Source: Candidatus Hermodarchaeota archaeon
GTDB lineage: Archaea; Asgardarchaeota; Lokiarchaeia; Sigyniarchaeales; SOKP01
Length of the DNA: 64,000 bases
Direction: 5' to 3'
Assembly: GCA_048885925.1 (NCBI GenBank)
Contig: JBHLLG010000011.1
Span: 9,062-73,061 of the forward strand
Shown here: positions 2,739 through 63,879 of the stretch, piece by piece
How positions within the stretch are numbered: the stretch's first letter is position 1
Layout of the letters: every line of letters begins with the position of its first letter
Notes under the pieces: model-generated
What the model saw: the letters and a program-made list of their open reading frames with translations, nothing else
Told to the model about the DNA's origin: nothing
The model's database searches: none
Position numbers and translations under genes: made by a program

Positions 2739-2791
2739 TGGTTCAATTTACATTACTCTTATCTTTATAACACAAAAAATTACCAAAGACA

Positions 2792-3064: not shown

Positions 3065-3210
3065 ATTCATTTATCATTATAATGCAATTTTTCTCGGACT
3101 TTTTAAATAAAAAATTTAGACGTACAATTTTATAACCCCAGAGACTAGAAATTTTATAATTTTAGCTGGATCTCTTTTTTTCTTTAAATAAAAGGGGCGA
3201 AATTAAAAGT

Positions 3211-3336
3211 ATAATAGAAAAAAATCCTACTCATATTTATGAAACTATTGGAAATTTCACTGTTTCTGTAACTGTCGTTGATAGGGATGGAGATTTTGAC
3301 ATTGAAACTAAAATTGATTATATTTTAGTTAATTAA
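3211..3336 (+). pseudogene. PKD-domain C-terminal remnant
   Basis: Manual translation NPTHIYETIGNFTVSVTVVDRDGDFDIETKIDYILVN*; no evident start codon. Confidence 0.6.
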
Positions 3337-3359
3337 TAAAATAATTTCATTTTTTTTTT

Positions 3360-3995: not shown

Positions 3996-4791
3996 ATTAA
4001 TTCTCTTATATTGATTCCTTTGGAATCAATCTTTAATTTTTGAAATCTCATCTATTGTGATTCTTAAATTTGTCAGAGCATAAATTTTTCCCATAATAAT
4101 CATGCTTTTGTTTCTTTTTTAAGAATGCTTTCTTTTTTTTCCTGTTTTGTCATTCCCAATAATTATTATGATCCTACACTATAAAATTCTTTTTGTATAT
4201 TTTTTAATCAATTAAAACCTAATAGAAAAATGTTTTAAAAAAAGTTATAACTTTTCTCTTTTCTGAATATACTATTTTTTTTTAAAAAAAAAGGATTTAA
4301 AAATTTGTAACTTCACGAGCAATAGTTATTGCTTTTGGTTCACTATAACCAGTAATGTGCGTATTTGCGAAAATAAGATGTATTGTAGCGTTAAAATATA
4401 GCCTAAATAATCCTTGAACATGCTCATAACTTCCAATACAATAAAAAGCGTATTCCCTTGCGTCATCATAATTTCCTAAACCCCATTGGGTCTCAAAATT
4501 GCTTAACTGAGAATCTAAGACTGCAATAAACCACATTTCACAAAAATAAGATCCTATTATCCGAAATCTTACCTTATCTTCTTTATATAACCATTAGCAA
4601 GTTCCAATTCATCTTCTTTATCCTTTAACTCAATTTTTAATTCTTCTAAACTTCTAATAGTGGATGTGACCGTAAAAAAAAGAATTGATTTAATTTGCTT
4701 ATTTTCAAGCTCTAATGGGGATAATTAGATATATTAGAGTAACCAAATATGAGCTAATATAAATGTTTTGAGAGTACATTGGTCATATTCT

Positions 4792-7257
4792 TCAAACTTT
4801 TCGGTTCAAATAAACTAGCATCTGTAATCTAGCAACAGCATTTCGAAGGTTAGCAATAAATGCTGCAGGTTTTGCTTCCTCGAATTCTTCTAAGAAGCGA
4901 CGAAATGTCTTTGGTGTATCAAATTGATCATTGAGTTTCGATTTCTCAAGATATTCTATGAAACGTTCAATCAAAGACCTGAGGTCTTTCATCCATACCA
5001 TGAGGTTCTTGATTGAGTAAAATGGTTTTCGAAATCTTAAGGATTTTAGATTTTGAGTGACTATCAAATCAGCAGCGTCGAGACCGGACAGGACTGCAAA
5101 ATCGCGAAATGCGGCAAGTCCGATATCAATGGTTTGAGCAAGGAAATTATGGGACTTAGAAATACGCGTTTCAAACCTATATCCGATTAATTGAACTTTC
5201 CCAAGTAGTGGTTCAATATCAATGAAATAGGATTCACCAATATCTGCTGTTCCGGGCACCACACCAGTAACCACTAAAGGCACAATATTGCCTGGTTTAA
5301 TCTCTAAATTTAGGTCAATTTTTTGCGATTCACCGGGTTTTACTTTATAGTTTCGACGTCCTGGAATCTCAATTTCTATCTGCTCATACTTTAGAGTACC
5401 CAAAGCATTTACTTTCAGAGTAATTGGTAATGATTTGTCCTCCATTTCATCTGGGTATGCAATGATGATTGGGGAGAACCAAATTCTATAGCTCTGACCT
5501 GCATTGGCATTTCCATCTGCGTAGTCTCCCACTTCCAAATTTCGTTGAACCCAGTCATTATCCTCTCTTATGACTGATTCCACTTCTCTAAATCCTAAAC
5601 TGGTTATGTCTTGATCGGGTTCCGAAGGACTTCGTATCACAGCGAAGACACAACTATGGTTAGGTGTTCCATCAGGAATTTCCCATGATAATGCTACAGT
5701 TTCTGGTGCACCGGGCGAAAGGTTATCAGGGACTGGAACGGATCCCAGATAATGAATATTAGCTATTCCACCACCAGATCCAGGATGTTTAATGAAATAC
5801 TTCACTTCCATATCTCGTGGTGGTAGGTCAACAATAGCTTCAATTTTGGCATATAAGTAGTTTGTAAAGGGATTTCCGCTTACGTCATAACGGATAGGGT
5901 GTTGATGGGCTGGAGTACCATCTGCATTGGTACCTCCAGGAGTATTTGAATGACGATTCCACAAATTCGACATTGAATAGAAATTTCGCCCCGCAGGAGC
6001 AACATTAGGTTCATTGCCTATGTCCTCAGGAAAATCACGAATATAATGATTTGTGATATCATGAGTTAGACAACATGTATCAACGCTTGTTGACATTGCA
6101 GGGTTGTTGGCACTAATGCAATTGAAGTGAGTGTTCTCATCAGGATTGGCTATGTTTGGCGATCCTGATGGTACTAAAATTGAGTTTCGGTCTCCTGTCC
6201 AGTTTCCTGCCCGAACAACTCCAGGATGCATTCCATCTAATGTATGGCCTAATTCATGTGCAAGAAGATTATCATTGCCAGCATTTTGGTCTGTAATTAC
6301 TACTTTTGAGGTTGCATCACCTGAATCAGAAGCTACTCCTCCACCTTGACTGGTAAGTGCATTTCCAGCGAAGAACACCTCAATAGTATTAGGATCAGGG
6401 TCAGTATATGAGTCACGAATAGCGGTGTAACTTGAGGTGTTTTTAAGAGTGGCATCAGTTATAATGTGGATGGGTTGTACATCGAACTGGATACAGCATT
6501 TGCCCCAGATTGCATTTGCTGCATTGAACTGCCGGTTAGCTGAAACTCCTGTAGGATTGGCATCAGTGTCACTATCCCTAAATCCAACCGGCTGAATTTT
6601 CAATGTCCTGATGTTTGTTACAAGGTCTGGATGGCAAGGATTATTGAGGTTTGCTTTCCCAGTTTCTTTGGGTCCAAGTATCTTAACAAGCTCAACTGCT
6701 CTTAAATGCAGGAAAATATTCCTGATGATGCCAAGACCGCCCTCTTGATACACGAGAGTAACTTTACCATCTCCAATTTGGAATTCTCTTCCCGTTTTCT
6801 TTTGGGTTATTGTTAAAACACACAACAAGCGTCCCAAGAATCGTTCTCGAGGCGAATCAAATACGTCCTCACCGACTTGGATATATCCCATTTTCTGACT
6901 AATAAGTCGATAAACCATTCTGACATCCAAGTTTGCTTCGAGTATCCATTGACTATCTCTAAGTGAAATACTTCCGTCACCATGACCCTTAATACTGATA
7001 TGTCCTGTGGACTCATTTTGAAGCAACACACCTGAGCTTACAAGACCAAGGGAGTTTATATTCACACCTATCCTACCTTTTTCGATATGACTTGTAGTAA
7101 ATCTTAATTCACCTTTAATATCACTTCTTTGATCTAGCTTCTCTATCGTATTGATAGTTGCATCTTGTTTAATTTTGAGAATAAAAGTAGTACCCTTAGA
7201 TAATCCAAGCGTCAAGTCTAATCCTTCTTCTGAGTTCTTACTATTCCTTTCCTCCAT
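4792..7257 (-). CDS. Large zinc-dependent metalloprotease (metzincin-like), atypical base composition
   Basis: LLAHELGHTLDGMH zinc motif; SD GAGGTGG; visibly GC-richer than flanks. Confidence 0.7.
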   Translation of the reverse strand: MEERNSKNSEEGLDLTLGLSKGTTFILKIKQDATINTIEKLDQRSDIKGELRFTTSHIEKGRIGVNINSLGLVSSGVLLQNESTGHISIKGHGDGSISLRDSQWILEANLDVRMVYRLISQKMGYIQVGEDVFDSPRERFLGRLLCVLTITQKKTGREFQIGDGKVTLVYQEGGLGIIRNIFLHLRAVELVKILGPKETGKANLNNPCHPDLVTNIRTLKIQPVGFRDSDTDANPTGVSANRQFNAANAIWGKCCIQFDVQPIHIITDATLKNTSSYTAIRDSYTDPDPNTIEVFFAGNALTSQGGGVASDSGDATSKVVITDQNAGNDNLLAHELGHTLDGMHPGVVRAGNWTGDRNSILVPSGSPNIANPDENTHFNCISANNPAMSTSVDTCCLTHDITNHYIRDFPEDIGNEPNVAPAGRNFYSMSNLWNRHSNTPGGTNADGTPAHQHPIRYDVSGNPFTNYLYAKIEAIVDLPPRDMEVKYFIKHPGSGGGIANIHYLGSVPVPDNLSPGAPETVALSWEIPDGTPNHSCVFAVIRSPSEPDQDITSLGFREVESVIREDNDWVQRNLEVGDYADGNANAGQSYRIWFSPIIIAYPDEMEDKSLPITLKVNALGTLKYEQIEIEIPGRRNYKVKPGESQKIDLNLEIKPGNIVPLVVTGVVPGTADIGESYFIDIEPLLGKVQLIGYRFETRISKSHNFLAQTIDIGLAAFRDFAVLSGLDAADLIVTQNLKSLRFRKPFYSIKNLMVWMKDLRSLIERFIEYLEKSKLNDQFDTPKTFRRFLEEFEEAKPAAFIANLRNAVARLQMLVYLNRKV

Positions 7258-16960: not shown

Positions 16961-17362
16961 ATGGCAGGATTAGACAGAATGTATGATACTCGTGGAGATA
17001 TTGAGTATTATATTGCGCACAAAATTAGGGAATTATTGGAAGAACCAATGAATGAACTACAAGATCCAAACTGGGTACAAGCGGCTACACTCTTTGAACA
17101 ATTGATATTACCCTTAGATATCTATATAGTGGAGGGGTTGCTTAATTTGGCAAATGATATTGTTAAAAAGGCAGAGGAGCATAATAATCGAGTGGTCTAT
17201 AAAGATATTTCCCCAAGGCTGTATAATCAAGTGGTAATCGATTCACCTTCTCTTGATATAAATAATTTGCCTGTGGGTGTTAATATCATAGACTATAATC
17301 ATATCATTGATAATATTAAGAAATGGATAGAGCACCAAAAAGAGCTAAAAGAAAGCCTATAA
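16961..17362 (+). CDS. Hypothetical protein
   Basis: ORF 133 aa with SD GGAG. Confidence 0.6.
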   Translation: MAGLDRMYDTRGDIEYYIAHKIRELLEEPMNELQDPNWVQAATLFEQLILPLDIYIVEGLLNLANDIVKKAEEHNNRVVYKDISPRLYNQVVIDSPSLDINNLPVGVNIIDYNHIIDNIKKWIEHQKELKESL

Positions 17363-42689: not shown

Positions 42690-43418
42690 TTAAGAAAGAT
42701 CAACTTCTAACTCTTTTTCAAAAACTTGCTCAACTGATTCTGTTTTAATAGTTCTTTCTATTCTCACTTGTTCGATTTCAATCCCTAATTCTTCTGAAAG
42801 TTTCCCAAGTCCAATAAAATGTCGTGGATCACATATAAACATACCAATAATTTTATTCCCTTCTATTTCTCTTGCAACATTTAATATTTTCATCATCATC
42901 CAAGCTTCTCTAACTTTATATCTTATTTCATCTTCTTGAGAATCATAGTCTTGTTTTAAATATTCTTTCCATAATACAATTCTCTGAAAAATGTCATCAT
43001 TTTCAGGAATATTTTGTTTAGTTTTCATAATTTCATTTATTCTTCGCTCAAGGTTTTTAATATGGATTCTATGCTCATCTAACGTGGAAGAGAGATATAA
43101 TTCCGCATTCTCTGAAATATCTGCATAATCAAAAGGAATTTTTCGATTTTTAAATAACAATCTAAGCGGTTCATTTGAATTCATGTCATTTTTCCACATA
43201 TTTGGCCTCTCTTCTAAAGCAAATTTAGGTTTGTATTTTTCAAGGAGTACATCAATCAATTGAAGATATTCCTTAGAAATTAAATGAAGATTCCAAAAAA
43301 GATCTTCTTTTAAATTTTTAGGAATTTCAAACCACCAATCGATAGGAAATTCACTCTCTACTAATACCAATTTTAAACTTTTATTTTTTAAAGGTTTTAA
43401 TTCTAAAACTTCAGGCAT
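42690..43418 (-). CDS. Hypothetical protein, weak TraB/ChaN-like motif
   Basis: REAWM...ICDPRHFIGL; N-terminus similar to the neighbouring gene. Confidence 0.6.
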   Translation of the reverse strand: MPEVLELKPLKNKSLKLVLVESEFPIDWWFEIPKNLKEDLFWNLHLISKEYLQLIDVLLEKYKPKFALEERPNMWKNDMNSNEPLRLLFKNRKIPFDYADISENAELYLSSTLDEHRIHIKNLERRINEIMKTKQNIPENDDIFQRIVLWKEYLKQDYDSQEDEIRYKVREAWMMMKILNVAREIEGNKIIGMFICDPRHFIGLGKLSEELGIEIEQVRIERTIKTESVEQVFEKELEVDLS

Positions 43419-43443: not shown

Positions 43444-44061
43444 TTATAATATTATTTTTTGTATAGTATGTTTTTTATTATAAGAGATTACTTTTACACC
43501 TATTTCTCTTAAATTTTCAACAATTTGTAGACATATATCTTCACATATATCTTCTTGAACAAAATGGACAAAAAAAATGGTATCTTTTTTAAATGAGCAT
43601 GCTATATCCAACATTTTCTTGACGATCCATTGAGGTCTTAACTTTAAACTAAGAAATATCTCCTTTTCTTGAATTTCTTCACCTAACATATCGATCCAAT
43701 TTTTTAAACTTTGCCCTTTATAAGATTCTTTATTCTCCATCATTTCATATTCTTCAAACAATTCATTTTGAAACTCTTGTTTTTCAATTATCTCTTGATA
43801 TAAATATCCCATTGCATAATCAGGAATATCTACTTGAAAATAGGGAATCTTAAGTTCATTCAAGGCTAGAGCAAAAGTAGTTTTACTAAATTCTTTCATA
43901 TCAACTTGAAAATCAACTGTAACAAAATCAATATTGTTTCTTTTCAAAAATTCAACTAATTTTGAATGATCTACATTCTGAAAATATCTAGCATTTTCTT
44001 TAGAAGATACATATACAACAATTTTTTTATTTTCTATTGGTTTTAATTCTAATACTTCCAT
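43444..44061 (-). CDS. Hypothetical protein, probable paralog of 42690-43418
   Basis: MEVLELKPIENK vs MPEVLELKPLKNK; SD AGGTGG. Confidence 0.65.
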   Translation of the reverse strand: MEVLELKPIENKKIVVYVSSKENARYFQNVDHSKLVEFLKRNNIDFVTVDFQVDMKEFSKTTFALALNELKIPYFQVDIPDYAMGYLYQEIIEKQEFQNELFEEYEMMENKESYKGQSLKNWIDMLGEEIQEKEIFLSLKLRPQWIVKKMLDIACSFKKDTIFFVHFVQEDICEDICLQIVENLREIGVKVISYNKKHTIQKIIL

Positions 44062-44191: not shown

Positions 44192-44247
44192 AGATTTAAA
44201 TAATTTGATAAGAATAATTTTAATCGATTTGACAATAAAATTTATCA
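44192..44247 (-). promoter_or_regulatory. Conserved promoter/operator block, copy 1
   Basis: 46/56 ungapped identity to 53352-53407; TGACA-N8-TATCA at 44230-44247; TTTAAA TATA-like box. Confidence 0.6.
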
Positions 44248-51171: not shown

Positions 51172-53208
51172 TTAAGTGTGATAAGGAGCTAATGCTTCAA
51201 TCTTTTTCCAAATAAGTTCAATAGATTCAATATATTCTTCCTTATATTCAAGTTCAGTATTACAAATGCCTTTTATCTCTTCAACAATTTGTTTATCTCT
51301 ATAATATTTAAGATCAATTGCCCTAGCTGGACAGGATGATACACAAACACCACATCCTTTGCATTTCAATTCATCTATTTCTGCAATTTTATCTCCATTA
51401 ACCATTACAGCCTTGTAATTACATAATTTTTCACATCTATGACAACCAATACATAGATTTTCATTTATTTCAGCAATTATTAATTCTTGAACGATTGCAT
51501 CTTTTGATAGTAATGTAGATGTTTTACTCGCTGCAGCTAATGCTGTTGATACCGAGTATGGGATATTTTTTGGGCCAGCAGCACACCCACAAATATAAAT
51601 TCCCATATTATTAGTTTCTTGAGGTTTTAGACATCCATGAACTTCAGATAAAAATCCATTAATATCTTTACTTAAACCTAATGTCTCAATTAATTTTGTT
51701 GTATTCTTAGAAGGGATCATGCCCGTTGATAATACAACAAGATCTGTATTCATTGTTATCATATCATTTGTTAAGGTTGAAGAAGCTGTAATTTTGAGGT
51801 TTTTTGTTATTGAATCTTCTCGTATATCACCAACTTTTCCTCGAATCATCATAATCCCTGCTTCTCTCACTTTTCTATAATATTCTTCATTCCCTTTATC
51901 CCATGTACGCATATCTATATAAAAAATGGCAATATTAATATCAGGATATTCTTGTTTTAACAGTTGAGCATTCTTAAGAGCAACATTACAACATACTCCT
52001 GAACAATAAGGATTTCCTTTTAAAGATCTCGAACCAACACATTGAATCATAGCTACTGTTTCTGGGATTCTTCCATCAGAAATTCTATAGACATGACCCC
52101 CTGTTGGTCCAACTGGACTTAACATGCGCTCTAATTCTATTTGAGTAATTACATCTGGATAAATTCCATATTTATAATCATTATTTTTCATAATTGGATA
52201 TTCATCCCATCCTGTGGCAAGAATTACAGCACCAACTCTTATATCAATAAATTCTGGCACCTGTTCAAAATCAATAGCTTCTGCTTGACACAATTTTTGA
52301 CAATTTTTGCATTCTATGCACACATTCTTATCAATTATCGCAACTTTAGGTACAGCTTGAGGAAATGGTATATAGATTGCACTACGTTCACCAATACCAC
52401 GATTGAATTCATTAGGTACTGTTATAGGACATTTTGTGGTACATAATCCGCATCCTGTACACTTTTTTTCGTTAACATAACGTGGATTTTTTTGTATTCT
52501 AACATTATATTTCCCAGGAATACCACTAAATCCAATAATTTCACTATAAGTCAGAAGGGTTATATTTGGGTGTTTTGAAGCATTTACCATTATAGGGGCT
52601 AAAACTCATATAGCACAATCGTCAGTGGGATAAATTCTATCTAATTGTGCCATTTTTCCACCAATAGTTCCTTCTTTTTCGATTAGAAAAACTCTCACTC
52701 CCTGATTTGCTAAATCTAATGCAGCATTCATCCCAGCAATTCCAGCACCTATTATTAATACTGATTTCTCCACTGAAATTTTTTTATACGGAACAATCTC
52801 TAATTCTCGAGCACGATTGATACCTGCTTGTACTAATCTTATAGCTTTTTCAGTTGTATCTTTTTTATTATTTGAAGATATAAATGAGCAATGTTCACGA
52901 AAATTTACCATTTGAAAATAATATGGATTTAATCCTGCTTCAGCTAAAACTGCTCGATAAGTAGACTCATGAATTTTTGGTGTACAAGCAGCTACAACTA
53001 CTCGGTTTAAATCTAAATCCAAAATATCGTTCTTGATAAGATTTTGCCCTGGATCACTGCAAGTAAAATCATTTGCTCTAGCTATAATGATATTTGGGAG
53101 TGCTTCAACATAATCTCTAATAAGGTCACAATCAATACTGGCTCCTATATTAACTCCTCATCTGCAAATATACACTCCGATTCTTGCAATGGTCTGTTTT
53201 TCAGACAT
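51172..53208 (-). CDS. hdrA: Selenocysteine-containing heterodisulfide reductase subunit A (678 aa, Sec17 and Sec201)
   Basis: One frame from ATG 53208; TGA 53158-53160 in IGVYICR-U-G; TGA 52606-52608 in DDCAI-U-VLAP; SD GGTGA; 3' SECIS. Confidence 0.92.
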
Positions 53209-53351: not shown

Positions 53352-53407
53352 AGATTTAAAAAATCTGATAAGAATAATTATAGTCATTTTGACAAATGAA
53401 TTTGTCA
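53352..53407 (-). promoter_or_regulatory. Conserved promoter/operator block, copy 2
   Basis: TGACA-N8-TGTCA at 53390-53407; matches 44192-44247; a third site lies at 53557-53574. Confidence 0.6.
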
Positions 53408-53648
53408 TTATTATATAAAATGTATTGATTTGGTCTTTGATTTGATCTTAATCCAATATAGTGTTTACCTTTTTCTTTGTATTGTGCAAATTATCGATAG
53501 TGACAATTATGTTTTATGGGAAAACTTTTAGTCAAGATGATCATATTTATATAGTTTGACAATCATATTTATCATAGAGATCATAAAAATTATTAAAATA
53601 GTCATAATAAATTTTATGATTATAAAATTAATTTAGTGATTTTTCATA

Positions 53649-54782
53649 ATGAGGATAAAGACTTTTAAAGATTTAATTGAAGAAGTTCATAAACCAGGTA
53701 TTTGTCAAGAATGTGGGGGTTGTGTTAGTTTTTGTAATTCAATTAAATATGATGCAATTGGGTTTAAAAAGCCTAATTCACCTCCGGAGTACTTAAATGA
53801 AGATAAATGTCTTGAATGTGGAATTTGTTATTTTATATGCCCACAGACACATATTTTAGATGAGGATTTAAATAAAACTTATAATTTTTCAGATAGTACA
53901 AAAATGCCTTTAGGATTTATAGATAGTATTTACTCTTGCCAATCTTTAGATGATGAATTTTTAAAATATGGAACAGACGGAGGTGTTGTGAACTCTATCA
54001 TTAATTATTTAATAGAAAAAAATTTTATTGAAGGAGCAATTGTAGCAAAAACAACATCACCTTTTAATAGGGAATCGATAATAGCTAGAAACAAAAAAGA
54101 TTTAATTGGTGCTTCGGGTGTCAAATTAGATATAACTCCTCAGCTAGAAATTGTACAAAAGTTTCATACTTATACGAGTTCATTACCCAGTTTAAGGCAT
54201 TATAAATTTAAAAAAATAGCATTAGTAGGCACACCTTGTCAGATTTATACGATTAGATGTATGCAAGAATTAGGTATTATTCCATCTGAGAATATCGAGA
54301 TTTGTCTAGGATTATTTTGTTATGAGAATTTCTTTTTTGACAAAGAGAGGGTAGAGAAATTCGAAAAATACTTTAAGCTTAAGTTTAAAAATATTGAAAG
54401 GGTAAACATAAAGGAAAATTTAATTATCAACATAAAAAATAAGAAAAATCCTCAAAAAACTATTCATATTCCATTTGAAAAATTAACTGATTATTCACGT
54501 CCAGCTTGTAGTGTTTGTAAAGATTTTACGAATATTTACGCAGATATTTCATTTGGAGGATTAGGTTCACATGATAAATATACAACTGTAATCACACGCA
54601 CTAAAAAAGGGGAGGAATTAATCAATAAAGCGCTGCGAGCAGGTGTAATTAAAAGATTTAGATTAGATAGCTCCAATTTAAAGGATTTAAAAGAAACATT
54701 AATACAATTTACTCAGTTGAAGTTAAAGCGAACAGAAGAAAATATGAGATATAAGATGATAACAGGGAAATCGTCATCATGA
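53649..54782 (+). CDS. FrhB/FpoF-family F420-binding subunit
   Basis: CQECGGC, GTDGGVV, GTPCQ, GLFCYENF, ADISFGG. Confidence 0.85.
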   Translation: MRIKTFKDLIEEVHKPGICQECGGCVSFCNSIKYDAIGFKKPNSPPEYLNEDKCLECGICYFICPQTHILDEDLNKTYNFSDSTKMPLGFIDSIYSCQSLDDEFLKYGTDGGVVNSIINYLIEKNFIEGAIVAKTTSPFNRESIIARNKKDLIGASGVKLDITPQLEIVQKFHTYTSSLPSLRHYKFKKIALVGTPCQIYTIRCMQELGIIPSENIEICLGLFCYENFFFDKERVEKFEKYFKLKFKNIERVNIKENLIINIKNKKNPQKTIHIPFEKLTDYSRPACSVCKDFTNIYADISFGGLGSHDKYTTVITRTKKGEELINKALRAGVIKRFRLDSSNLKDLKETLIQFTQLKLKRTEENMRYKMITGKSSS

Positions 54783-54872: not shown

Positions 54873-57422
54873 GTGGATATTTATTCAATATTATCTCATC
54901 CATTTAGAAGAAAAATCCTACTGCTTTTAGAAAAGGAGGGTTATATTCCTTATTCAGATTTAATGGAAAGACTTGGTTTAGATACAACTGGACAACTAAA
55001 TTTTCATCTTAAAAAGATAGGTTCATTGATAGGTAAAGACAAAAAATCGTATTATCTTACAGAAGATGGCAAACGAGTATTAAGAATTATTAGTTTGAAC
55101 AAAAGAATTTTATCTGGAGAAGATATTGATGAATACTTAGAATCTAAGGGGAGTGAAATAAGCCGAATTGGAGTAATTATTTGTAATTGTAATACCGAAG
55201 TTTCAAGTGTAATTAATATCACTGCGTTAGAGAATTATATAAATAAATTGAGAATGGTAGTTTCAGTAAAAGTTTTTGATAATTTATGTCAAGAAAAAAA
55301 TTTCAAAAAGATTATTAATTGGGTTAAAGATAATTTTTTAAATAAGATTGTAATAGCTGCTTGTTCCCCAAAAACGCACCAGCTTCTATTTGAACGAATC
55401 TTTGAAGATATTATTGACCGTGCAAATATTGAAATAGCAAACATTAGGGAGCAGTGTTGTTGGGTTCATCAAACTAAAACAAACAAAATAGATCCTTCAC
55501 TTTCATTGGAAAAATCTAAATTATTAATTGAAGCTGCAGTTGAGCGCGTAAACATTCAAAAGAAAGTAAAAGTAAAAAGAGTTGAAGTAGAAAAGAGTTG
55601 TGCTATTTTAGGTGGAGGAATTGCAGGTATTACACTCGCATTAAATTTAGCTCGAACTGGCATTAAAGTTCATCTTATTGAGAAATCGCCTACATTAGGA
55701 GGTAAAGTAGCGAGATGGCATCGAATCCATCAAATGGGTGATTGTTCAATATGTTTTATTTCAGAATTAATCAGCGAATTAACAAATCAAAAAAATATAA
55801 AAATTTATACTAATACTGAAATTGAAAATGTATCAGGAGAAGTGGGCAATTTTACTCTTCGTTTAATTAAGAAACCTCGTTTTATTGATGTGAAAAAATG
55901 CACAGGATGTAAACAATGTATTGAAGTTTGTAGTATACAAAAGCAAAATCAATTTGAATATGGTTTAACTAATCGAAAAATAATATATATCCCTTTTATT
56001 CATTCATATCCTTTCGCTCCTATAATTGATAAAGAAGATATAAATAAATGTATTAGTTGTAGAATTTGTGAACGTGCATGCGCTAATAAAGCTATAGATT
56101 TAACTCAAAAAGATGAAAAGATTGAGATTAAGGTTGGTGCAAAAGTTATTGCTATTGGATCTGATTTATACGAAGATTTAGAGGATTATCATTATAATCC
56201 CCAAAAAAATATAATAACATCTGCTGAATTTGAAAGAATACTATCTTCTGATGGCATTACTGAAGGAAATCTCTTAAGATTATCAGATAGAAAACCTTTA
56301 AATTCGATTTCTATTATCCAAGAAGTAGGTCCTTCAAAATATCTGGCACATTACTCGGAAATTTTAGCCCAAAAATATATTGAAGATATAAAAATTAGAA
56401 ATCCTGATTGTGAAGTTAATGTTTTTTATGATTTAGGTAAACTGAAAAATAAAGATGAGATTTTATTACGTTCTACTAATCCAAGATTTTTATATGCTAA
56501 CAAAATTACTATTGAAATTAAAGAAGATATAAACTATGTTGTTGCTGATAATATTGGATTTCCAAGTGATTTAATCATATTAAATCTAAAATATATCCCT
56601 AATAAAGATTTAAAAGATCTAAGAAAATATATGGATTTTACTTTAGATGATAATGGATTTATGAGCGAAGAAACATTGGCATCTGGTATTTATGGTATTG
56701 GTACAATTTTTGGACCATTGGATTATAATTCTACAATTTCAACCGCTAACAATTGTGCATTAAAAATTATTTCATTATTATCGAAGGATCATCTAATTGC
56801 AGAGTTTAGTGGAATTGAAATTAATGAAAATAAATGTGGTTTGTGTGGATTATGTCTTAAAATTTGTCCTTATAATGCGATTACAATAGAATCAGATAAA
56901 ATAAGTGTAGATAAATTTAAATGCAAGGGATGTGGTACATGTGCTAGTATTTGCTCTACCAATGCAATAGATTTAAATATCGACACATCTGAAAAAATAT
57001 TATCCACAATTGAAGTTTTTTCAAAATTTAGAGCAAGTCCAAAAATTATTGCTTTCTGTTGTAGTTCTTGTGGATACGCTGCTGCTGATGATGCCGGACT
57101 TAAGAAAATCTCATACAATCCAAATACTTTTATCATTCGAGTTCCATGTACAGGAAGGATTGATACTAATTTTATAATTAAATCATTTGAGCTTGGATTC
57201 GATGGAGTAATGGTTGTTGGTTGTAGACAAGATGCTTGTCGTTACATTGATGGAATTGAAAAAATAGGAAACAAAATTAGATTATTAAAGGATATATTAA
57301 CACCAAAATATAAAGATCGAATATTACTTGAACATATGAATGCAGTAGAGGGTGTAAAATTTGCTGAAATCGCTAATAGCTTCTTTAATAAATTAAAGGA
57401 GGAGGTAAAATATGAAGCGTAG
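54873..57422 (+). CDS. ArsR-type HTH / HdrA / MvhD fusion protein
   Basis: LSHPFRRKILLLL...GQLNFHLKK...YYLTEDG; ICNC, ACSP, GGGIAG, ferredoxin motifs; C-terminal FCCSSCGYAAAD...RVPCTGR...GCRQDACRY. Confidence 0.85.
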   Translation: MDIYSILSHPFRRKILLLLEKEGYIPYSDLMERLGLDTTGQLNFHLKKIGSLIGKDKKSYYLTEDGKRVLRIISLNKRILSGEDIDEYLESKGSEISRIGVIICNCNTEVSSVINITALENYINKLRMVVSVKVFDNLCQEKNFKKIINWVKDNFLNKIVIAACSPKTHQLLFERIFEDIIDRANIEIANIREQCCWVHQTKTNKIDPSLSLEKSKLLIEAAVERVNIQKKVKVKRVEVEKSCAILGGGIAGITLALNLARTGIKVHLIEKSPTLGGKVARWHRIHQMGDCSICFISELISELTNQKNIKIYTNTEIENVSGEVGNFTLRLIKKPRFIDVKKCTGCKQCIEVCSIQKQNQFEYGLTNRKIIYIPFIHSYPFAPIIDKEDINKCISCRICERACANKAIDLTQKDEKIEIKVGAKVIAIGSDLYEDLEDYHYNPQKNIITSAEFERILSSDGITEGNLLRLSDRKPLNSISIIQEVGPSKYLAHYSEILAQKYIEDIKIRNPDCEVNVFYDLGKLKNKDEILLRSTNPRFLYANKITIEIKEDINYVVADNIGFPSDLIILNLKYIPNKDLKDLRKYMDFTLDDNGFMSEETLASGIYGIGTIFGPLDYNSTISTANNCALKIISLLSKDHLIAEFSGIEINENKCGLCGLCLKICPYNAITIESDKISVDKFKCKGCGTCASICSTNAIDLNIDTSEKILSTIEVFSKFRASPKIIAFCCSSCGYAAADDAGLKKISYNPNTFIIRVPCTGRIDTNFIIKSFELGFDGVMVVGCRQDACRYIDGIEKIGNKIRLLKDILTPKYKDRILLEHMNAVEGVKFAEIANSFFNKLKEEVKYEA

Positions 57423-58170
57423 ATTTATAATAATGTCTTTAACGTCATGTAGTGGATGTATCTCAACTCTTATGTCCTTAGACATTTTCCCCCAATTCTT
57501 AGAAAGAACAAGGATATCGTATTTTAACTTTATTTCAGATATAGATGAGATTGATGATTGTGATATTGCTCTGATAGAAGGGTGTATATCCGAAGAAACA
57601 CAAATCCCAATACTTCAGAAGATAAGAAAAGTTGCAAAAAAGGTATATGCGCTAGGAACATGTGCTAGTTTTGGTGGAATTTTAAGTCTTTCAAATACAA
57701 AAACAGCAATACCAATCTCCAATTATGCTGAAATTGATGGAATTATTCCAGGGTGTCCTCCTCCTTCAAAGCTTCTTGGAAATTGTATTATTAAATTGGT
57801 TGAGAATAAAGAGATTACGTTAACTGAAAAAAATATGTGTGCAACTTGCCCAATCCGAGAAAATTTGGGAATTAATAGCCAAATTAATATATCTAAAATT
57901 AATCCAAATCCAGAAGAGATTAGCTTAGATGAAGAGGTTCCTAAATGCTTTTTAAAAAACGGTATTTTGTGTTTAGGTCCAATTACTAGAGATGGATGTG
58001 AACATAAATGTATAACAATAGGACTGCCTTGTGAAGGATGTATGGGCTCGGTATCAAAAGACTTTACTTCAAATCTTATTAATTATTTAAGTTTGATAAA
58101 ATTATCAAAAGAGTTAAAAAGTTATACAGGTATTTTTTATCGATTTTCAAAACCAAAATTTAGAGGGTAA
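57412..58170 (+). CDS. mvhG: Group 3 [NiFe]-hydrogenase small subunit
   Basis: CSGC, GTCASFGG, PGCPP, CLGPITRDGC. Confidence 0.8.
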   Translation: MKRRFIIMSLTSCSGCISTLMSLDIFPQFLERTRISYFNFISDIDEIDDCDIALIEGCISEETQIPILQKIRKVAKKVYALGTCASFGGILSLSNTKTAIPISNYAEIDGIIPGCPPPSKLLGNCIIKLVENKEITLTEKNMCATCPIRENLGINSQINISKINPNPEEISLDEEVPKCFLKNGILCLGPITRDGCEHKCITIGLPCEGCMGSVSKDFTSNLINYLSLIKLSKELKSYTGIFYRFSKPKFRG

Positions 58171-58174
58171 AAAA

Positions 58175-59479
58175 ATGTTGAAAGTAGTTGACATTTGTCA
58201 ACGTGTTGAGGGTCATGGAGAAGTAAAAATATTAGTTCAAAATGATGAAATTTCATTAGTGAATTTTGAATTTGATGTATATCGGGGATTTGAAAATTTT
58301 TTAATAGGAAAGCAATTACTAGATATTCCGAAAATAGTTTCGCGAATATGTGGACTTTGTTACGCTTCTCAAGCAATTGCAAGCTGTAAAGCAATAGAAG
58401 ATATTTATAACATTAAGGTTTCAAATCAAAATATTCTTTTAAGACGTCTTTTAATGATAGGAGAATTAATAAAATCTCATTCAATGAATTTTTTCTTCCA
58501 AAATTTACCAGATCTCTTAAAAATTTTTAATATTAGTCAAAATTTGTTATCTCCTTATGAATTAGTAAAATATAATCCTCAATTAACAACCAATTTATAT
58601 GAATTAATCAAAATTGGAAATGAAATAAATGAATTATTTGGTGGTAGATCTGTTCATTTGCTTTCACCAATTCCAGGAGGTATTATCTATTCTCCTTCAC
58701 AAAAAAACATTACATTGGCTAAAAGAAATTTACAAAAATCACTGGTTAATTTAGAATGGATAATAGAAAAAGTAATTGAATTATTTGCTGATCAGATTCC
58801 TCCAAGAGAATTTGAAATACCAAATTATATATCTTTAGGATTAACTAATAATGGAAATTATGATAGATATTTAGGTTCTTTAAGACTTAAAGAAAATAAT
58901 AAAAACGTAATTGAATTTGAAAAACAAAAATATTCTTCTTACTTTGGTAAAGAAATTGATTTACGTGGAATTGATTTTTATTTCAAAAATAAAAGGAATG
59001 TAATTGTTGGTCCATTTTCTCGTTTTAATATTGTTGAGAACTATGGAATTGAACAAATTAGTACTTCTTTTGAATCCTTTGAAAAAAGGTGGAAAAATAA
59101 TATCCTATTAACGAATTTTATACGTTTAATAGAAATGTATATCGAATCTTATCAAGGGATACAAATTTTAGATGATCCTTGTTTATATGTTAAAGAAAAA
59201 CTTCCATCCTTAGATTCAATTAAAAAATCTGATGGAATAGGTCTTATTGAAGCGCCAAGGGGGATATTACTCCATCATTACCACCTTAATAAAAGTAATG
59301 TTATTGATCGAGTTAAACTTTTTGTTGCTACAGAGTTCAATATTCCTGTTATTAACCATATGATTACAAATTATGCTCAAGAACTATTTGAAAAAACAGA
59401 TGACATTAATTTGGTAAAAAAAAATATTCAGATGATAATTAGAGCCTTTGATCCTTGTATTTCTTGTGCTACACACTAA
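58175..59479 (+). CDS. mvhA: Group 3 [NiFe]-hydrogenase large subunit
   Basis: RVEGHG, L1 RICGLC, EAPRG, L2 DPCISCATH. Confidence 0.85.
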   Translation: MLKVVDICQRVEGHGEVKILVQNDEISLVNFEFDVYRGFENFLIGKQLLDIPKIVSRICGLCYASQAIASCKAIEDIYNIKVSNQNILLRRLLMIGELIKSHSMNFFFQNLPDLLKIFNISQNLLSPYELVKYNPQLTTNLYELIKIGNEINELFGGRSVHLLSPIPGGIIYSPSQKNITLAKRNLQKSLVNLEWIIEKVIELFADQIPPREFEIPNYISLGLTNNGNYDRYLGSLRLKENNKNVIEFEKQKYSSYFGKEIDLRGIDFYFKNKRNVIVGPFSRFNIVENYGIEQISTSFESFEKRWKNNILLTNFIRLIEMYIESYQGIQILDDPCLYVKEKLPSLDSIKKSDGIGLIEAPRGILLHHYHLNKSNVIDRVKLFVATEFNIPVINHMITNYAQELFEKTDDINLVKKNIQMIIRAFDPCISCATH

Positions 59480-59686: not shown

Positions 59687-61042
59687 ATGTTAGAAAATGA
59701 AAAAGAAGGACAACTTAAGTATATTCATCTGAAAGATTTAGGAACTGTGTTAAAAAATGAAATTTATGAAATACTCGAAGAGAATTTGATAGCCGAAACA
59801 AATCCATTTGAAATGGCAAAAAAGCAAATTGATATAGTCGCCGAAAAGATGAGATTAAATAAGAATTTAAGAAAATATCTTAAAAGAGTTGAAAGATGCT
59901 TAATTGTAACAGTTCCAATAAAATTAGATGATGGAAGTCTCGAGATATTCGAAGGTTATAGAGTCCAACATTCAACCGTTCGGGGTCCTGGAAAGGGAGG
60001 AATTAGATTTGCTCCAAATGTTAATCTTGATGAAGTTAAAGCATTAGCCACTTGGATGACATGGAAATGTAGCTTACTAAATCTACCTCTTGGAGGAGCA
60101 AAAGGAGGGATATGCGTCGATCCTTCAAAATTATCAAAGGGTGAACTAGAAAGGTTAACCCGAAGATATACCGCAGAAATTATAAACATTATAGGTCCTG
60201 ATATGGATATTCCTGCACCAGATATTAATACAGATCCTCAGATAATGGCTTGGATAATGGATACTTATTCTATGAATAAGGGAAGATCCGTTCCAGGGGT
60301 AGTAACAGGTAAACCGCTAGAAATAGGAGGTTCAGTTGGAAGAGAAACTGCAACTGGAATGGGATTATTTTATGTTCTAGAAGCTTTATGCAGTAAAATT
60401 AAAATAGATTTAAAATCCCAATGTATTGTTGTACAAGGATTTGGTAATGTTGGGGGAAATATCGCTAAAATTTTATACGAGAAAGGTTGTAAAGTAATTG
60501 CTGTATCAGACATTAGTGGTGGGTTATATTGTGAAAAAGGATTAAATATTAAACAGTTATTAGATTGGAGAGATAAAGGTAAATATTTAAAAGATTTTCA
60601 AAAAAAGGATTATGAAATTGTTGATAATGAATATATTCTTACACTTAAATGTGATATTTTGATTCCATCTGCAATTGAAAACCAGATAAGACATTCAAAC
60701 GCTTATAAGATCAATTGTAAAGTTGTATTAGAAGGTGCTAATGGGCCAACTACTCCAGAGGCAGATGAAATTTTAAACGAAAGAGGGATAATTGTAGTTC
60801 CAGATATACTTGCCAACGCAGGAGGAGTTTGTGTCTCTTATTTTGAGTATATACAAGATATTCATAGTTACTTCTGGAAATTAGAAAGAATTAATCAAGA
60901 ATTAAAGAATATTCTTGTTAATGCATTTGAAGAAGTTTATAATTTATCATTAGAACAGAAAACAACGCTACGAATAGCCTCATATATGATTGCTATTTCA
61001 AGACTAGCAAAAGCAATTGAATTAAGGGGTATTTTTCCGTGA
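59687..61042 (+). CDS. gdhA: Glutamate dehydrogenase
   Basis: GPGKGGIRF, MTWKC, GGAKGG, VQGFGNVG, EGANGP, NAGGV. Confidence 0.93.
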   Translation: MLENEKEGQLKYIHLKDLGTVLKNEIYEILEENLIAETNPFEMAKKQIDIVAEKMRLNKNLRKYLKRVERCLIVTVPIKLDDGSLEIFEGYRVQHSTVRGPGKGGIRFAPNVNLDEVKALATWMTWKCSLLNLPLGGAKGGICVDPSKLSKGELERLTRRYTAEIINIIGPDMDIPAPDINTDPQIMAWIMDTYSMNKGRSVPGVVTGKPLEIGGSVGRETATGMGLFYVLEALCSKIKIDLKSQCIVVQGFGNVGGNIAKILYEKGCKVIAVSDISGGLYCEKGLNIKQLLDWRDKGKYLKDFQKKDYEIVDNEYILTLKCDILIPSAIENQIRHSNAYKINCKVVLEGANGPTTPEADEILNERGIIVVPDILANAGGVCVSYFEYIQDIHSYFWKLERINQELKNILVNAFEEVYNLSLEQKTTLRIASYMIAISRLAKAIELRGIFP

Positions 61043-61115: not shown

Positions 61116-62009
61116 TTATTTTTCTTTTTTAGTCTTAAATTTTATTTTGTTTGTCATTTTAAAAATATCTATAAAACTTGAAACGTGTATTGGTAATAGG
61201 ATTCCATCTAAAGTTTTAATTTCTTCGTTGATAAATCTCCAAAGATTTTTTTCATCTTTAGCAATCATTTTCAATAATAAATTATAATCACCAGTGGAAG
61301 ATACAACTAATTGTATTTCATCATATTTGGAGAGTTTTCTAGCAATATCGTCTAATTTTAAAGGATCTACAGAAAGACCCAGAATAGCCATAGATTCATA
61401 TCCTACTTTAAAAGGATCTACAAATGTGTCGAATTTTTTTATAATCCCGTCTTTGACCATGTTTTGTACGCGATTATGAATGGTACTAGCAGCCAAATTC
61501 ACTTTTTTACTTAAATCTTTATAAGAGATCTTATAATTTTCTTGTAGAAAATTAAGAATTTCTTTATCTTTTTCATCAAATTGTACTTTTAGGATCCTGT
61601 CTATTACTTTTTCTGTTTCAATTTTTTGTCGTTCAATAGCATATAAAATTGCTCGTATCAAACTAGGTCCATTCAGTTCATCCTTTACAATATAGTCCTG
61701 AGCGCCCTTCTGAAGAGATCTTAATGCGAAATCCTTATCATCTAATCCAGTTAAAATTATTATAGGGATGGTGTTAGTAAAATTTAAGACTCGTTCTAAG
61801 GTAGATTCTCTATCGCTATCAGGTAGAGTTAAATCTAATAAAATAATGTCAAACTTTTTAACTTTAAGGCGATTCAGACTTTCAGAAAGCCTAGGATTTG
61901 ATTCCAAATCAAATTTGAATTCTTCAGAGCTTTTTAATAATTCTTTGATAAGACGCACATCAGCGTTATTATCTTCAATTAAAAGGATATTAAAGCTTTT
62001 TTTTCCTAT
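61116..62009 (-). CDS. Response-regulator receiver fused to an Lrp/AsnC transcription factor (probable ATA start)
   Basis: NILLIEDN...LLDLTLPD...QDYIVK plus FDEKDKEIL...STIHNRV; SD GGTGA at 62016-62020. Confidence 0.85.
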   Translation of the reverse strand: MGKKSFNILLIEDNNADVRLIKELLKSSEEFKFDLESNPRLSESLNRLKVKKFDIILLDLTLPDSDRESTLERVLNFTNTIPIIILTGLDDKDFALRSLQKGAQDYIVKDELNGPSLIRAILYAIERQKIETEKVIDRILKVQFDEKDKEILNFLQENYKISYKDLSKKVNLAASTIHNRVQNMVKDGIIKKFDTFVDPFKVGYESMAILGLSVDPLKLDDIARKLSKYDEIQLVVSSTGDYNLLLKMIAKDEKNLWRFINEEIKTLDGILLPIHVSSFIDIFKMTNKIKFKTKKEK

Positions 62010-62352: not shown

Positions 62353-63420
62353 GTGTTTGAAATGAACTTGAAATTTAGGGAAGAAAGAACAAGAATGTTG
62401 ATTATTTTAATTTTGATGCCAATTTCATTCTTTTTAATATACTACTTCGAAATAATTCTCAGAACATCTATTTTAGTAGCACATTTTTTTTATTTTCCTT
62501 CAATCCTTGCATGTTTATGGTGGAAAAGAAAAGGTTTATTTATTCCTGTTTTTTTAGCAGTAATTTTAATTATTTTTAATATTATCCCTGAAGATGGGAT
62601 TTTTAATTTAGAGCTAATTAATAATTTTTTAAGAGCATTCTCATTAGTAATAGTAGGGTTAGTAGTATCTTTCCTATCTGAACAAATTTCAAAAAGAGAA
62701 ATTGAATTTAATGAAATTATGGAAGATTTAAAGCGTTCAAATGAGGATTTGCAGCAATTTGCCTATGTAGCTTCACATGACCTACAAGAACCTTTAAGAG
62801 CAATCGTAAGCTTCTCTCAACTTTTAGAAGATAAATATCAGGATAAATTAGATAAAGATGGTAAAGAATTTATTCACTTTATTACAGATGGAGCAAAAAA
62901 CATGAATACTCTTATTAAGGATCTATTATTATATTCAAGGATTACAACACATGCTCAACCTTCAAAATTGACTAATCTTGAACAGATTTTAAAAGGAGCA
63001 TTGTTTAATTTACATGAATCAATAAAAGAAAGTGGTGCTGTTATAACTCATGATGAAATGCCAGTACTAAAAGTTGATAAAACTCAATTTATTCAATTAT
63101 TTCAGAATTTACTTAGTAACGCTATAAAGTTTCGAAGGCAAGAACCACCTAAAATACATATTGGAGTAAAGAAGGTTAATGATGAGTGGTTATTCTCATT
63201 TACAGATAATGGTATAGGAATTGAATCAAAATTTTTTGATAAACTTTTTAATATTTTTTACAGATTACATACTAAAGAGGAATATCCAGGTACAGGGATA
63301 GGGTTACCTATATGTAAGAAGATAGTCCAACGTTATGGTGGAAAAATTTGGGTGAACTCTGAATTTGGGAGAGGTTCAACATTCTATTTTACAATTTTTC
63401 CAGAAAAAAATAAAGATTAA
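62353..63420 (+). CDS. Membrane sensor histidine kinase
   Basis: FAYVASHDLQEPLR, NLLSNAIKF, DNGIGI, GTGIGL. Confidence 0.92.
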   Translation: MFEMNLKFREERTRMLIILILMPISFFLIYYFEIILRTSILVAHFFYFPSILACLWWKRKGLFIPVFLAVILIIFNIIPEDGIFNLELINNFLRAFSLVIVGLVVSFLSEQISKREIEFNEIMEDLKRSNEDLQQFAYVASHDLQEPLRAIVSFSQLLEDKYQDKLDKDGKEFIHFITDGAKNMNTLIKDLLLYSRITTHAQPSKLTNLEQILKGALFNLHESIKESGAVITHDEMPVLKVDKTQFIQLFQNLLSNAIKFRRQEPPKIHIGVKKVNDEWLFSFTDNGIGIESKFFDKLFNIFYRLHTKEEYPGTGIGLPICKKIVQRYGGKIWVNSEFGRGSTFYFTIFPEKNKD

Positions 63421-63432
63421 TTATATACTATT

Positions 63433-63879
63433 ATGAATGATAATAAAAGAGTAAAAGCAAAAATCTTACTTGTTGAAGATAATGCTGCAGATATTCGTTT
63501 AATTCAAGAAGTTCTTCGAGAAAGCAAGGTTGTAAGTAGTTTAGATGTAGTAAGAGATGGTATTGAAGCTATTGAATTTCTGAAAAAGAGAGGTAAATAT
63601 TCTAATGTAAATAAGCCAAATCTGATCCTTTTAGACTTAAATTTGCCAAAGAGAAATGGTTTTCATGTATTGAAAGAAATCAAGAAAGATGAAGAACTGA
63701 AGCGAATTCCAGTAGCAATTTTGACTGTTTCTGATGCTCAAGAAGATTTGATTAAAGCTTATGATCTTCATGCTAATTGTTATATAATTAAACCTTTAGA
63801 AATGAAGCAATTTTATAAAATCGTTAATTCAATAGTGAATTTTTGGTTTATTACAGTAAAACATTTTGAAGATGAATAA
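63433..63879 (+). CDS. Single-domain response regulator (Rcp1-like)
   Basis: LLVEDN, LLDLNLPK, ANCYIIKP. Confidence 0.92.
   Translation: MNDNKRVKAKILLVEDNAADIRLIQEVLRESKVVSSLDVVRDGIEAIEFLKKRGKYSNVNKPNLILLDLNLPKRNGFHVLKEIKKDEELKRIPVAILTVSDAQEDLIKAYDLHANCYIIKPLEMKQFYKIVNSIVNFWFITVKHFEDE

Follow-up and report, generated by a model that had tools for sequence, protein, structure and literature searches.

An N-terminal winged helix on the HdrA-MvhD flavoprotein of an Asgard [NiFe] hydrogenase: a candidate self-regulating, redox- or H2-responsive module

Can a hydrogenase carry its own transcription factor? This question is raised by a 64,000-nucleotide (nt) stretch of DNA from a Candidatus Hermodarchaeota archaeon (GenBank assembly GCA_048885925.1, contig JBHLLG010000011.1, positions 9,062 to 73,061), hereafter the window, which is AT-rich (about 29% G+C) and encodes a protein of 849 amino acids (aa) in which a winged helix-turn-helix (wHTH) domain, an HdrA-type flavoprotein and an MvhD adaptor are joined, followed by the [NiFe] hydrogenase genes mvhG and mvhA. 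An earlier note, made from the letters of the window, had proposed that this is a repurposed HdrA that reads electrons from the hydrogenase and controls transcription. We found that the wHTH accompanies this module across the Asgard archaea, and that an operator-like palindrome lies at the promoter of the module in most of the loci. We therefore tentatively read the module as a self-regulating, redox- or H2-responsive hydrogenase-flavoprotein, a reading that seems to us plausible, if a little short of an even chance.

The wHTH-HdrA-MvhD fusion is not an assembly artefact, because it was seen in 79 species-level Asgard genomes and because contigs from three studies (runs X3, X6 and X8) bridge the junction at 55,130 to 55,170, the place singled out by the earlier note for a check of read support, without indels or joints. 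The 79 loci came from a scan that kept one genome per species, and they were labelled Promethearchaeota/Lokiarchaeia, Helarchaeota, Jordarchaeia, Sigynarchaeum and Borrarchaeum, with some Thor-, Hod- and Odinarchaeota. The wHTH was present in all 76 loci in which the N-terminus lay on the contig, with the match starting at residue 1 or 2. Downstream of the fusion, mvhG was identified in 72 of the 79 loci and mvhA in 70, and most of the others stop at contig ends. A protein search with the full-length sequence gave 2696 relatives among 8000 candidates scored; of the 120 best-matching clusters listed, which are 67-100% identical, 107 have PF24038, the Pfam family of the N-terminal domain, by our own count, and the rest, 793-821 aa long, probably have miscalled starts. 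The fusion is thus not unique to this assembly.

The domain architecture read from the letters, an ArsR-like wHTH fused to HdrA and MvhD, was borne out by Pfam and by alignment to Protein Data Bank (PDB) sequences. DUF7347 (PF24038) matched aa 2-73 (E 2.8e-11, 43.9 bits vs a cut-off of 27.6), and HTH_24 scored slightly below its Pfam cut-off. Along the rest of the protein, Pfam identified a NAD_binding_8/flavin adenine dinucleotide (FAD) motif at aa 245-284, two ferredoxin-type domains, and FlpD/MvhD (PF02662) at aa 725-843, the latter with 118 bits vs a gathering score of 22.3 (E 3.3e-34). HdrA chains (8RVU, 5ODC, 7BKB) aligned to aa 94-716 with E values of about 1e-104 and MvhD chains to aa 722-842, and no match among the PDB sequences covered aa 1-93 in the full-length search. 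The FAD motif and the ferredoxin clusters, which had been described as kept, stand out as invariant columns: the Rossmann glycines G247-G249-G252 and the motif D290-C291-x-x-C294 are invariant and align with 8RVU and 5ODC, and among 32 diverse members the same holds for the cluster cysteines C104, C106, C139, C164, C291 and C294, the eight of the inserted ferredoxin, those of the C-terminal ferredoxin and those of MvhD (C730, C733, C759, C784 and C789). The map of open reading frames (ORFs) also agreed with the gene order given in the earlier note, with an 11-nt overlap between the fusion ORF and mvhG, and mvhA next.

The N-terminal domain looks like a repressor domain, with DNA binding as its putative function. 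When the wHTH was modelled alone with AlphaFold2 (AF2), the predicted local distance difference test (pLDDT) value was 87.5, and the topology was helix-helix-helix-helix-beta hairpin-helix. The full-length model had a pLDDT of 85.6, falling below 50 at aa 87-94 of the linker, which is predicted to be disordered. A Foldseek search of the wHTH against the PDB returned DNA-binding regulators at the top, namely NolR-DNA (4OMY), YodB, CadC, HxlR-DNA, BigR, HlyU, SmtB and MarR-type proteins, with template modelling (TM) scores of 0.55-0.69 and weak E values of 5e-3 to 3e-2; the nearest PDB sequence was the putative ArsR 1Y0U. The structure modelling suggested in the earlier note thus yielded a confident wHTH fold with repressors as its best structural matches. 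Among 72 full-length sequences, the mean pairwise identity of the wHTH was 0.73, vs 0.61-0.77 for the other domains. In the same set the recognition-helix residues T39, G40, Q41, L42, N43, F44, H45, L46, K47 and K48 are invariant or nearly so, as are K55, K58, Y60, G66 and K67 of the wing. The mean net charge is +5 for the wHTH and -3.2 for the linker. Prediction of a wHTH homodimer (two copies of aa 1-96) scored 0.36, the mark being 0.42, and we count it neither for nor against dimerization.

The relatives of this domain are mostly small proteins. A search of 1.84 billion representatives with aa 1-96 identified 881 relatives, most of them 90-450 aa long with one or two HTH_5, HTH_20 or DUF7347 domains, together with a few divergent fused forms (P0145 and P0165 complete, P0160 and P0122 without MvhD). 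DUF7347 matched at five places in the whole genome. On another contig of the same genome (C2; L104, 902-2887, minus strand), a 661-aa protein has an N-terminal DUF7347 wHTH and a long unannotated body, and may be a second enzyme-regulator fusion.

The earlier note had named the palindromes near the operon as candidate targets of the wHTH, and this suggestion gains support from their position and their conservation. Genome-wide (3.9 Mb), where composition would predict about 17 sites with at most one mismatch to TGACAA-N6-TTGTCA, we identified nine. Three of these lie in this Hdr neighbourhood, and the site at 53,390 is the only one in the genome with zero mismatches. Of 76 orthologous loci, 69 have a site with at most two mismatches in the 300 nt ahead of the first gene of the operon; among the controls, such a site was found in 85 of 1520 random 300-nt pieces taken from these loci and in 28 of 1520 upstream regions after shuffling. 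When 56 proximal sites were aligned, the octamer TTTATATA was conserved at -11 to -4, in columns that had not been used for site choice. Archaeal transcription starts roughly 25 nt past the TATA box. Because the proximal site begins 3 nt past this TATA box, a protein bound there would occlude the start region, which is the usual arrangement of a repressor.

We further compared genomes with and without the module. Our class sample comprised 80 genomes at least 85% complete, of which 53 carry this mvhA. By hand tally, the 53 module-bearing genomes hold 77 exact matches to the pattern and the 27 without the module hold 19, with 24 matches of a control in the 80 genomes, a modest difference; 36 of the 77 lie on the mvhA contig within about 15 kb of it, also by hand tally. 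The location of matches near mvhA is therefore a stronger signal than the cross-tabulation by module presence. The matches that we inspected by eye in module-less genomes appear mostly to be inside coding sequence. Four genomes taken as module-less are uninformative as operator controls: G018 keeps the cassette and its contig ends beyond the frhB-like gene, where the fusion would lie, and G032, G055 and G003 are missing the 205-aa target gene too, which leaves them without power. One further site in the window, at 17,148-17,165, is the only other one within two mismatches of the operator pattern.

The HdrA part of the fusion has lost one of its clusters. In 8RVU HdrA and in the selenocysteine-containing HdrA (Sec-HdrA) paralogue of the window (P0270), the pattern C-x-G-S-R ... 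C-S-x-x-C-C is present, where the fusion has IQEVGPSKYLAHYSEIL with zero cysteines; in the window's fusion there is no cysteine at aa 478-500. These alignments agree with the loss of the central cluster ligands claimed in the earlier note. Across 72 sequences, the cysteine count in this stretch was 0 in 40, 1 in 25, 2 in 5 and 4 in 2. A passage of Chadwick et al. (PMC9012536) describes the cluster of the thioredoxin-reductase domain of HdrA as the exit toward HdrBC, and in the complex formed by Mvh, Hdr and Fmd this same cluster is named HA4, on the route from FAD to HdrB, in a passage of PMC13580544. Judged by position in the domain, the four missing cysteines are presumably the HA4 ligands, and an HdrA flavoprotein from which this cluster is gone would be unable to pass electrons to HdrBC. 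The ORF map and Pfam place no hdrB or hdrC in the window's operon. In tblastn searches within about 7 kb, with HdrB and HdrC of the same genome as queries, hdrB was identified in 0 of the 79 orthologous loci and hdrC in 1. The best NCBIfam match was HdrA2 (NF040770), aligned over aa 98-843 with 575.8 bits vs a cut-off of 1100, and the curated cut-offs for HdrA were also missed (hdrA_Methbact 402 vs 1300; hetero_SS_HdrA 380 vs 1400). By these features the fusion is thus no canonical HdrA, since it lacks one defining cluster as well as the HdrBC partners and scores under the curated cut-offs.

The large subunit of the hydrogenase combines features of different groups. Its four Ni-Fe cysteines are present (C59 and C62, and those of DPCISCATH at the end), and Q66, four positions past the second L1 cysteine, aligns with the His of 7T2R_D and 5ODC_F, so that intact Ni-binding cysteines with Gln in place of the usual His, as first read from the letters, held up. 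Among 70 MvhA orthologues the L1 residue is Gln in 66 and His in 4 (Jord- and Borrarchaeia), and the two paralogous large subunits of the same genome, one Vhu-type beside hdrCB and one 3b-type, have His. In 60 of 68 orthologues MvhA ends at the His of DPCxxCxxH, without a C-terminal extension; only loci of the Hel, Jord, Sigyn and Borr types have one, of 5-11 residues. The closest solved relatives are 7T2R_D (large subunit of the bifurcating NiFe-HydABCSL) and 5ODC_F (MvhA), both group 3 matches, and the NCBIfam scores are far under their cut-offs (VhuA 165.8 vs 800 bits, ShyA 172 vs 700). We take Gln66 to occupy the L1 position of Gln67 in HoxC, partly on a passage of PMC5665086. The N-terminal RVEGH motif of MvhA keeps its His. 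According to that passage (PMC5665086), Gln for the L1 His is a hallmark of H2-sensing regulatory hydrogenases, and HoxC 'lacks a C-terminal extension' in the wording of PMC10073562. The four Ni-Fe cysteines and the adjacent mvhG and MvhD domain agree with group 3c (Mvh/Vhu type). Judged from these alignments, however, MvhA cannot be called a typical 3c enzyme, the L1 His being missing, and by sequence it is no group 2b sensor either. The RVEGH His would presumably correspond to Asp15 of HoxC, for which the source shows the variant name D15H only. A literature search for Q67H together with hydrogenase found no papers.

Another [NiFe] large subunit was found in 46 of the 53 module-bearing genomes, nearly always a Vhu-type protein aligning to residues 6-407. 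Two stretches in related genomes (G055:C30:64388-64834 and G029:C130:23655-24116) are 39-44% identical to the middle of MvhA, with 7-9 stops, and look like decayed large-subunit copies. In the gene table of Prometheoarchaeum MK-D1, the MvhA-HdrB-HdrC-MvhG hydrogenase is the only one and no such module is present, a table that cannot tell an enzyme from a sensor.

The combinations of these features across lineages suggest an order of events. The wHTH occurs together with all four HA4-type cysteines and the L1 His in the Borrarchaeum loci and on the metagenomic contig L169, and together with the four cysteines also in P0145, P0165 and P0160. The Jordarchaeia have lost the cluster cysteines and kept the L1 His, and in loci of the Loki, Hel and Sigyn types the cysteines are gone and L1 has Gln. 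The order thus appears to be that the wHTH came first, on a canonical-looking Mvh-HdrA, that the HdrBC branch was then lost and the sensor-like active-site features gained, and that the C-terminal extension was lost last. Of the earlier proposal of a repurposed HdrA, the architecture stands; the idea that the wHTH was put on a repurposed enzyme does not, because Borrarchaeum, L169 and P0145/P0165 pair the wHTH with the four cysteines, so that it was added to a canonical-looking one. A metagenome scan with P0145 alone gave no matches, and one with the alignment A5 gave 79 loci, almost all ordinary HdrA from about residue 95, with L169 as the one additional wHTH-fused relative. The L169 locus (958-4865) is of higher G+C, has two frameshifts that split the HdrA frame, and carries TTGTCAA half-sites upstream.

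We propose the following mechanism. MvhA-MvhG would be a soluble [NiFe] hydrogenase wired via MvhD to an HdrA flavoprotein that is cut off from HdrBC, and the HdrA module would still connect to ferredoxin-type partners. An HdrA dimer could present two wHTH domains to the TGACAA-N6-TTGTCA palindrome, and the wHTH, bound at its own promoter and at the divergent promoters of Sec-HdrA and of the 205-aa/MtdB-like operon, would block the recruitment of RNA polymerase. H2, via MvhAG-MvhD, and ferredoxin, via the inserted ferredoxin clusters, would set the redox state of the flavin and the clusters, and this state would alter the geometry or the availability of the wHTH, most plausibly through its tether to the HdrA N-terminal domain, which moves with the redox-gated 'mobile arm' in the methanogen Mvh-Hdr complex. 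The regulon would be repressed or de-repressed as the outcome. That the wHTH binds the operator, that binding depends on redox state or H2, and in which direction it regulates are parts that we infer. In its boldest form, the module would be the first archaeal H2 sensor, with an active site like that of a regulatory hydrogenase (RH) reached by convergence, an HdrA uncoupled from HdrBC and a wHTH on the mobile arm, weighing H2 against the ferredoxin pool to control Wood-Ljungdahl and Hdr genes directly, without kinase or second messenger; taken as a whole, we regard this form as unlikely.

Several observations weigh against a self-regulating, H2- or redox-responsive module. The wHTH and the operator are linked by co-location, and binding between them is again what we infer. 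The 27 genomes that lack the module also hold exact-pattern matches (19, vs 24 control matches in 80 genomes), and in 7 of the 76 loci the 300 nt scanned contain no site within two mismatches. Residue 41 is Ile in Sigyn and Lys in Borr, where the canonical site is missing, and L057 (K41) keeps its sites, so that the covariation is not clean. On the Gln, the passage of PMC5665086 itself notes that it 'seems not to be involved in H2 sensing'. The cluster loss and the His-to-Gln change are both younger than the wHTH fusion. The complex is probably also an enzyme, since the ferredoxin-side clusters are strictly conserved and since in 7 of the 53 module-bearing genomes no other [NiFe] large subunit was found with this MvhA as query. 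Finally, in the BCRII complex the wHTH of the MvhD-like adaptor BamF serves as a protein-protein contact, according to the part of the preprint that describes it (bioRxiv 10.64898/2026.04.10.717634).

This last observation leads to a different explanation, in which the wHTH is a structural or docking module for the FrhB-like protein, a ferredoxin or the second protomer, an unlinked factor binds the palindrome, and the complex is purely catalytic. BamF, an MvhD-type adaptor, contacts BamI through its wHTH in the HdrA-like BCRII complex; the fusion already exists in lineages with a four-cysteine HdrA and a His-type MvhA; all ferredoxin-side clusters are conserved; and the invariant surface of the recognition helix would suit a protein interface as well as a DNA interface. 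However, the wHTH hangs on a low-confidence acidic linker and is not packed on the body, it is basic, and its best structural matches are all DNA-binding repressors. The FrhB-like partner occurs in just 18 of 76 loci, compared with 76 of 76 for the wHTH, and the rare operator is concentrated at the module's own promoter. On this balance, docking as the sole role of the wHTH seems to us rather unlikely.

Two other explanations keep the wHTH on DNA and differ in what the complex does. If it were a dedicated, low-turnover H2 sensor, it would be an archaeal analogue of the bacterial RH that signals straight to DNA without a histidine kinase. Both RH hallmarks are there, with the Gln in 66 of 70 orthologues and the C-terminal extension missing from 60 of 68, the cluster directed at HdrBC is gone and hdrB was not found nearby, and the second large subunit, mostly Vhu-type, of 46 of the 53 module-bearing genomes would be able to do the catalysis. 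However, the inserted and C-terminal ferredoxin clusters are invariant although a sensor would not need them, 7 of the 53 genomes showed this large subunit alone, one lineage co-transcribes a FrhB-like redox partner, the sequence matches group 3 best and not group 2b, and the RVEGH His is kept; a purely sensory complex is, in our judgement, quite unlikely. It could also be that the wHTH is a redox-independent autorepressor that sets the dosage of an ordinary ferredoxin-linked hydrogenase, which would agree with the operator at the module's own promoter and with a fusion that is older than every sensor-like change. For such a repressor a separate gene would serve and fusion to a 770-aa redox protein would be unnecessary, yet the fusion is kept in 76 of 76 loci, and the regulon reaches other redox genes (Sec-HdrA and the MtdB-like operon); we consider plain autorepression very improbable. 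The reading that we tentatively keep is thus that of a hydrogenase-flavoprotein that responds to redox state or H2 and regulates itself.

The coordinates of the module and its surroundings are collected in Table 1.

Table 1. Features of the module and its surroundings (positions in the window; strand left empty where none applies)
Feature	Position	Strand	Basis or remark
242-aa paralogue	42690..43418	-	No Pfam family
205-aa protein	43444..44061	-	No Pfam family
Third operator copy	44230..44247		Second copy of the cassette, ahead of a minus-strand operon (205-aa protein, 242-aa paralogue, MtdB-like gene)
Sec-HdrA, divergent	51172..53208	-	Two in-frame TGA codons read as selenocysteine (U17, U201); U201 within the DCxxC pair
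Perfect palindrome TGACAA-N6-TTGTCA	53390..53407		In a 77-85-nt cassette (repeat D1) facing the minus-strand Sec-HdrA gene
TTTATATA box of the operon promoter	53546..53553	+	Same octamer is the consensus at -11 to -4 from the proximal operator in 56 loci
Proximal operator-like palindrome TGACAA-N6-TTATCA	53557..53574	+	One mismatch to TGACAA-N6-TTGTCA; 92 nt before the frhB-like start, 3 nt past TTTATATA
frhB-like gene	53649..54782	+	FrhB_FdhB_N/C plus 2x[4Fe-4S] (Pfam, NCBIfam); first gene of the operon, in this lineage only
wHTH-HdrA-MvhD fusion ORF, 849 aa	54873..57422	+	GTG start, GGGAGGG ahead of the start
wHTH domain, aa 1-80	54873..55112	+	Predicted helices 2-7, 10-22, 27-34, 39-52 (recognition helix), beta-hairpin wing 53-62, helix 64-80 (Pfam DUF7347, AF2)
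Acidic linker, aa 81-97	55113..55163	+	pLDDT <50 at aa 87-94; mean net charge -3.2
HdrA body, aa 98-716	55164..57020	+	N-terminal cluster domain, FAD/thioredoxin-reductase domain, inserted ferredoxin, C-terminal ferredoxin (PDB alignments, invariant Cys/Gly columns)
Lost [4Fe-4S] cluster site, aa 483-497, QEVGPSKYLAHYSEI	56319..56363	+	Alignments to HdrA relatives
MvhD domain, aa 717-849, [2Fe-2S] adaptor	57021..57422	+	Pfam FlpD, E 3.3e-34; PDB MvhD chains, E about 1e-24
mvhG, [NiFe] hydrogenase small subunit	57412..58170	+	Pfam Oxidored_q6; best PDB match 5ODC_E
mvhA, [NiFe] hydrogenase large subunit	58175..59479	+	Ends exactly at the His of DPCISCATH
L1 motif RICGLCYASQ (C59, C62, Q66) of MvhA	58343..58372	+	Gln66 replaces the conserved His
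Glutamate dehydrogenase gene	59687..61042	+	After mvhA
Receiver domain fused to AsnC/Lrp-type HTH	61116..61958	-	Near the module in 6/79 loci
Membrane histidine kinase	62353..63420	+	Near the module in 8/79 loci
Single-domain response regulator	63433..63879	+	Near the module in 2/79 loci

Among the neighbouring genes, the frhB-like gene is a lineage-specific addition, because it lies directly upstream of the fusion in just 18 of 76 loci. Sec-HdrA is a probable member of the same regulon, because the operator cassette lies in its upstream region. The 205-aa and 242-aa paralogues share an N-terminus of the MEVLELKP type and head an operon with the MtdB-like gene, and in most other loci the gene that diverges from the fusion operon encodes a homologue of the 205-aa protein. 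By its Atlas model, the 205-aa protein matched the N-terminal part of 578-aa Bathyarchaeota proteins with Mpt_N (TM 0.81 by query), and the protein may be a detached domain of methylene-tetrahydromethanopterin dehydrogenase. We rejected it as an alternative regulator, since it has no Pfam family and its model is like the MtdB-like N-terminus and TraB/GumN folds and not like a DNA binder. No rival regulator is evident near the module among the conserved neighbours.

Downstream, the receiver-AsnC protein, the histidine kinase and the response regulator are not core to the module, given their counts within about 7 kb (Table 1). The receiver-AsnC protein is another local DNA binder. Glutamate dehydrogenase was identified near the module in 8 of 79 loci, seven of these copies being 72-80% identical and the one in L059 42%; in L014, L021, L030 and L038 it lies downstream on the same strand, as in the window.

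H2 transfer is central to Asgard physiology and to syntrophy models of eukaryogenesis, and H2 sensing and gene regulation are almost unexplored there. The module offers a concrete and widely conserved candidate, with a putative DNA-binding domain, an 18-bp operator by the TATA box and a small candidate regulon (the module itself, Sec-HdrA and the MtdB-like C1 operon). If the boldest form of the reading is true, it would represent a new H2-signalling logic in the archaeal lineage closest to eukaryotes. The results also bear on annotation: such proteins are recorded as a 'hydrogenase iron-sulfur subunit' or as 'heterodisulfide reductase subunit A' though the cluster that reaches HdrBC is absent, which should be corrected, and assignment of the module to MvhADG-HdrABC in metabolic reconstructions is probably wrong.

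How does this module compare with known systems? Like MvhAGD-HdrABC of methanogens (5ODC, 8RVU, 9SW2-9SW6), it has the domain order of HdrA, the FAD, the N-terminal cluster, the cysteine pair and both ferredoxins, together with MvhD, MvhG and MvhA. In contrast to that complex, the fusion has an N-terminal wHTH, HdrA and MvhD are joined, the cluster is lost, hdrB and hdrC are not nearby, and MvhA has the Gln and no C-terminal extension. HdrA2 of Methanosarcina (NF040770) shares the HdrA-MvhD fusion; we take it to have no wHTH and no mvhG or mvhA after it. SurR of the Thermococcales is a stand-alone ArsR-like wHTH protein with a CxxC disulfide switch that controls hydrogenase operons, whereas the wHTH of the module is a domain of the hydrogenase complex itself. 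BamF likewise has a wHTH within an MvhD/HdrA-type electron-bifurcation complex; its wHTH is internal to the adaptor, whereas here it is N-terminal, basic, on a flexible linker and accompanied by a conserved operator. A survey of archaeal fusions (PMC11237513) names, in its passage on HdrA, HdrA-HdrA and HdrA-MvhD fusions only. Among open PMC papers and bioRxiv preprints, neither a wHTH-HdrA fusion nor DUF7347 was found to be described.

The closest parallels are therefore to be sought in function. HoxBC with HoxJ/HoxA (group 2b, Cupriavidus necator) resembles the module in the L1 Gln, the lack of a C-terminal extension and the proposed role of leading from H2 to transcription. It differs in that the module has no group 2 sequence affinity (its best PDB and NCBIfam matches being group 3), that just 6-8 of 79 loci have a histidine kinase or response regulator close to the module, and that the proposed output here is a DNA-binding domain on the electron-transfer subunit itself. 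PutA of enterobacteria is a flavoenzyme in which the redox state of the flavin controls DNA binding. RbkR, as described in a passage of PMC5397151, is an archaeal riboflavin kinase fused to a wHTH that controls the pathway to which it belongs, and its operators were predicted by comparative genomics and later validated. The module resembles RbkR in having a putative DNA-binding domain on an enzyme and an operator at its own promoter, the link between domain and operator being presumed here, and differs from it in the unrelated enzyme family, the multi-subunit hydrogenase-flavoprotein and the H2/ferredoxin signal. By analogy, the module would work most like the bifunctional enzyme-regulators RbkR and PutA, and in purpose it would be most like HoxBC-HoxJ-HoxA.

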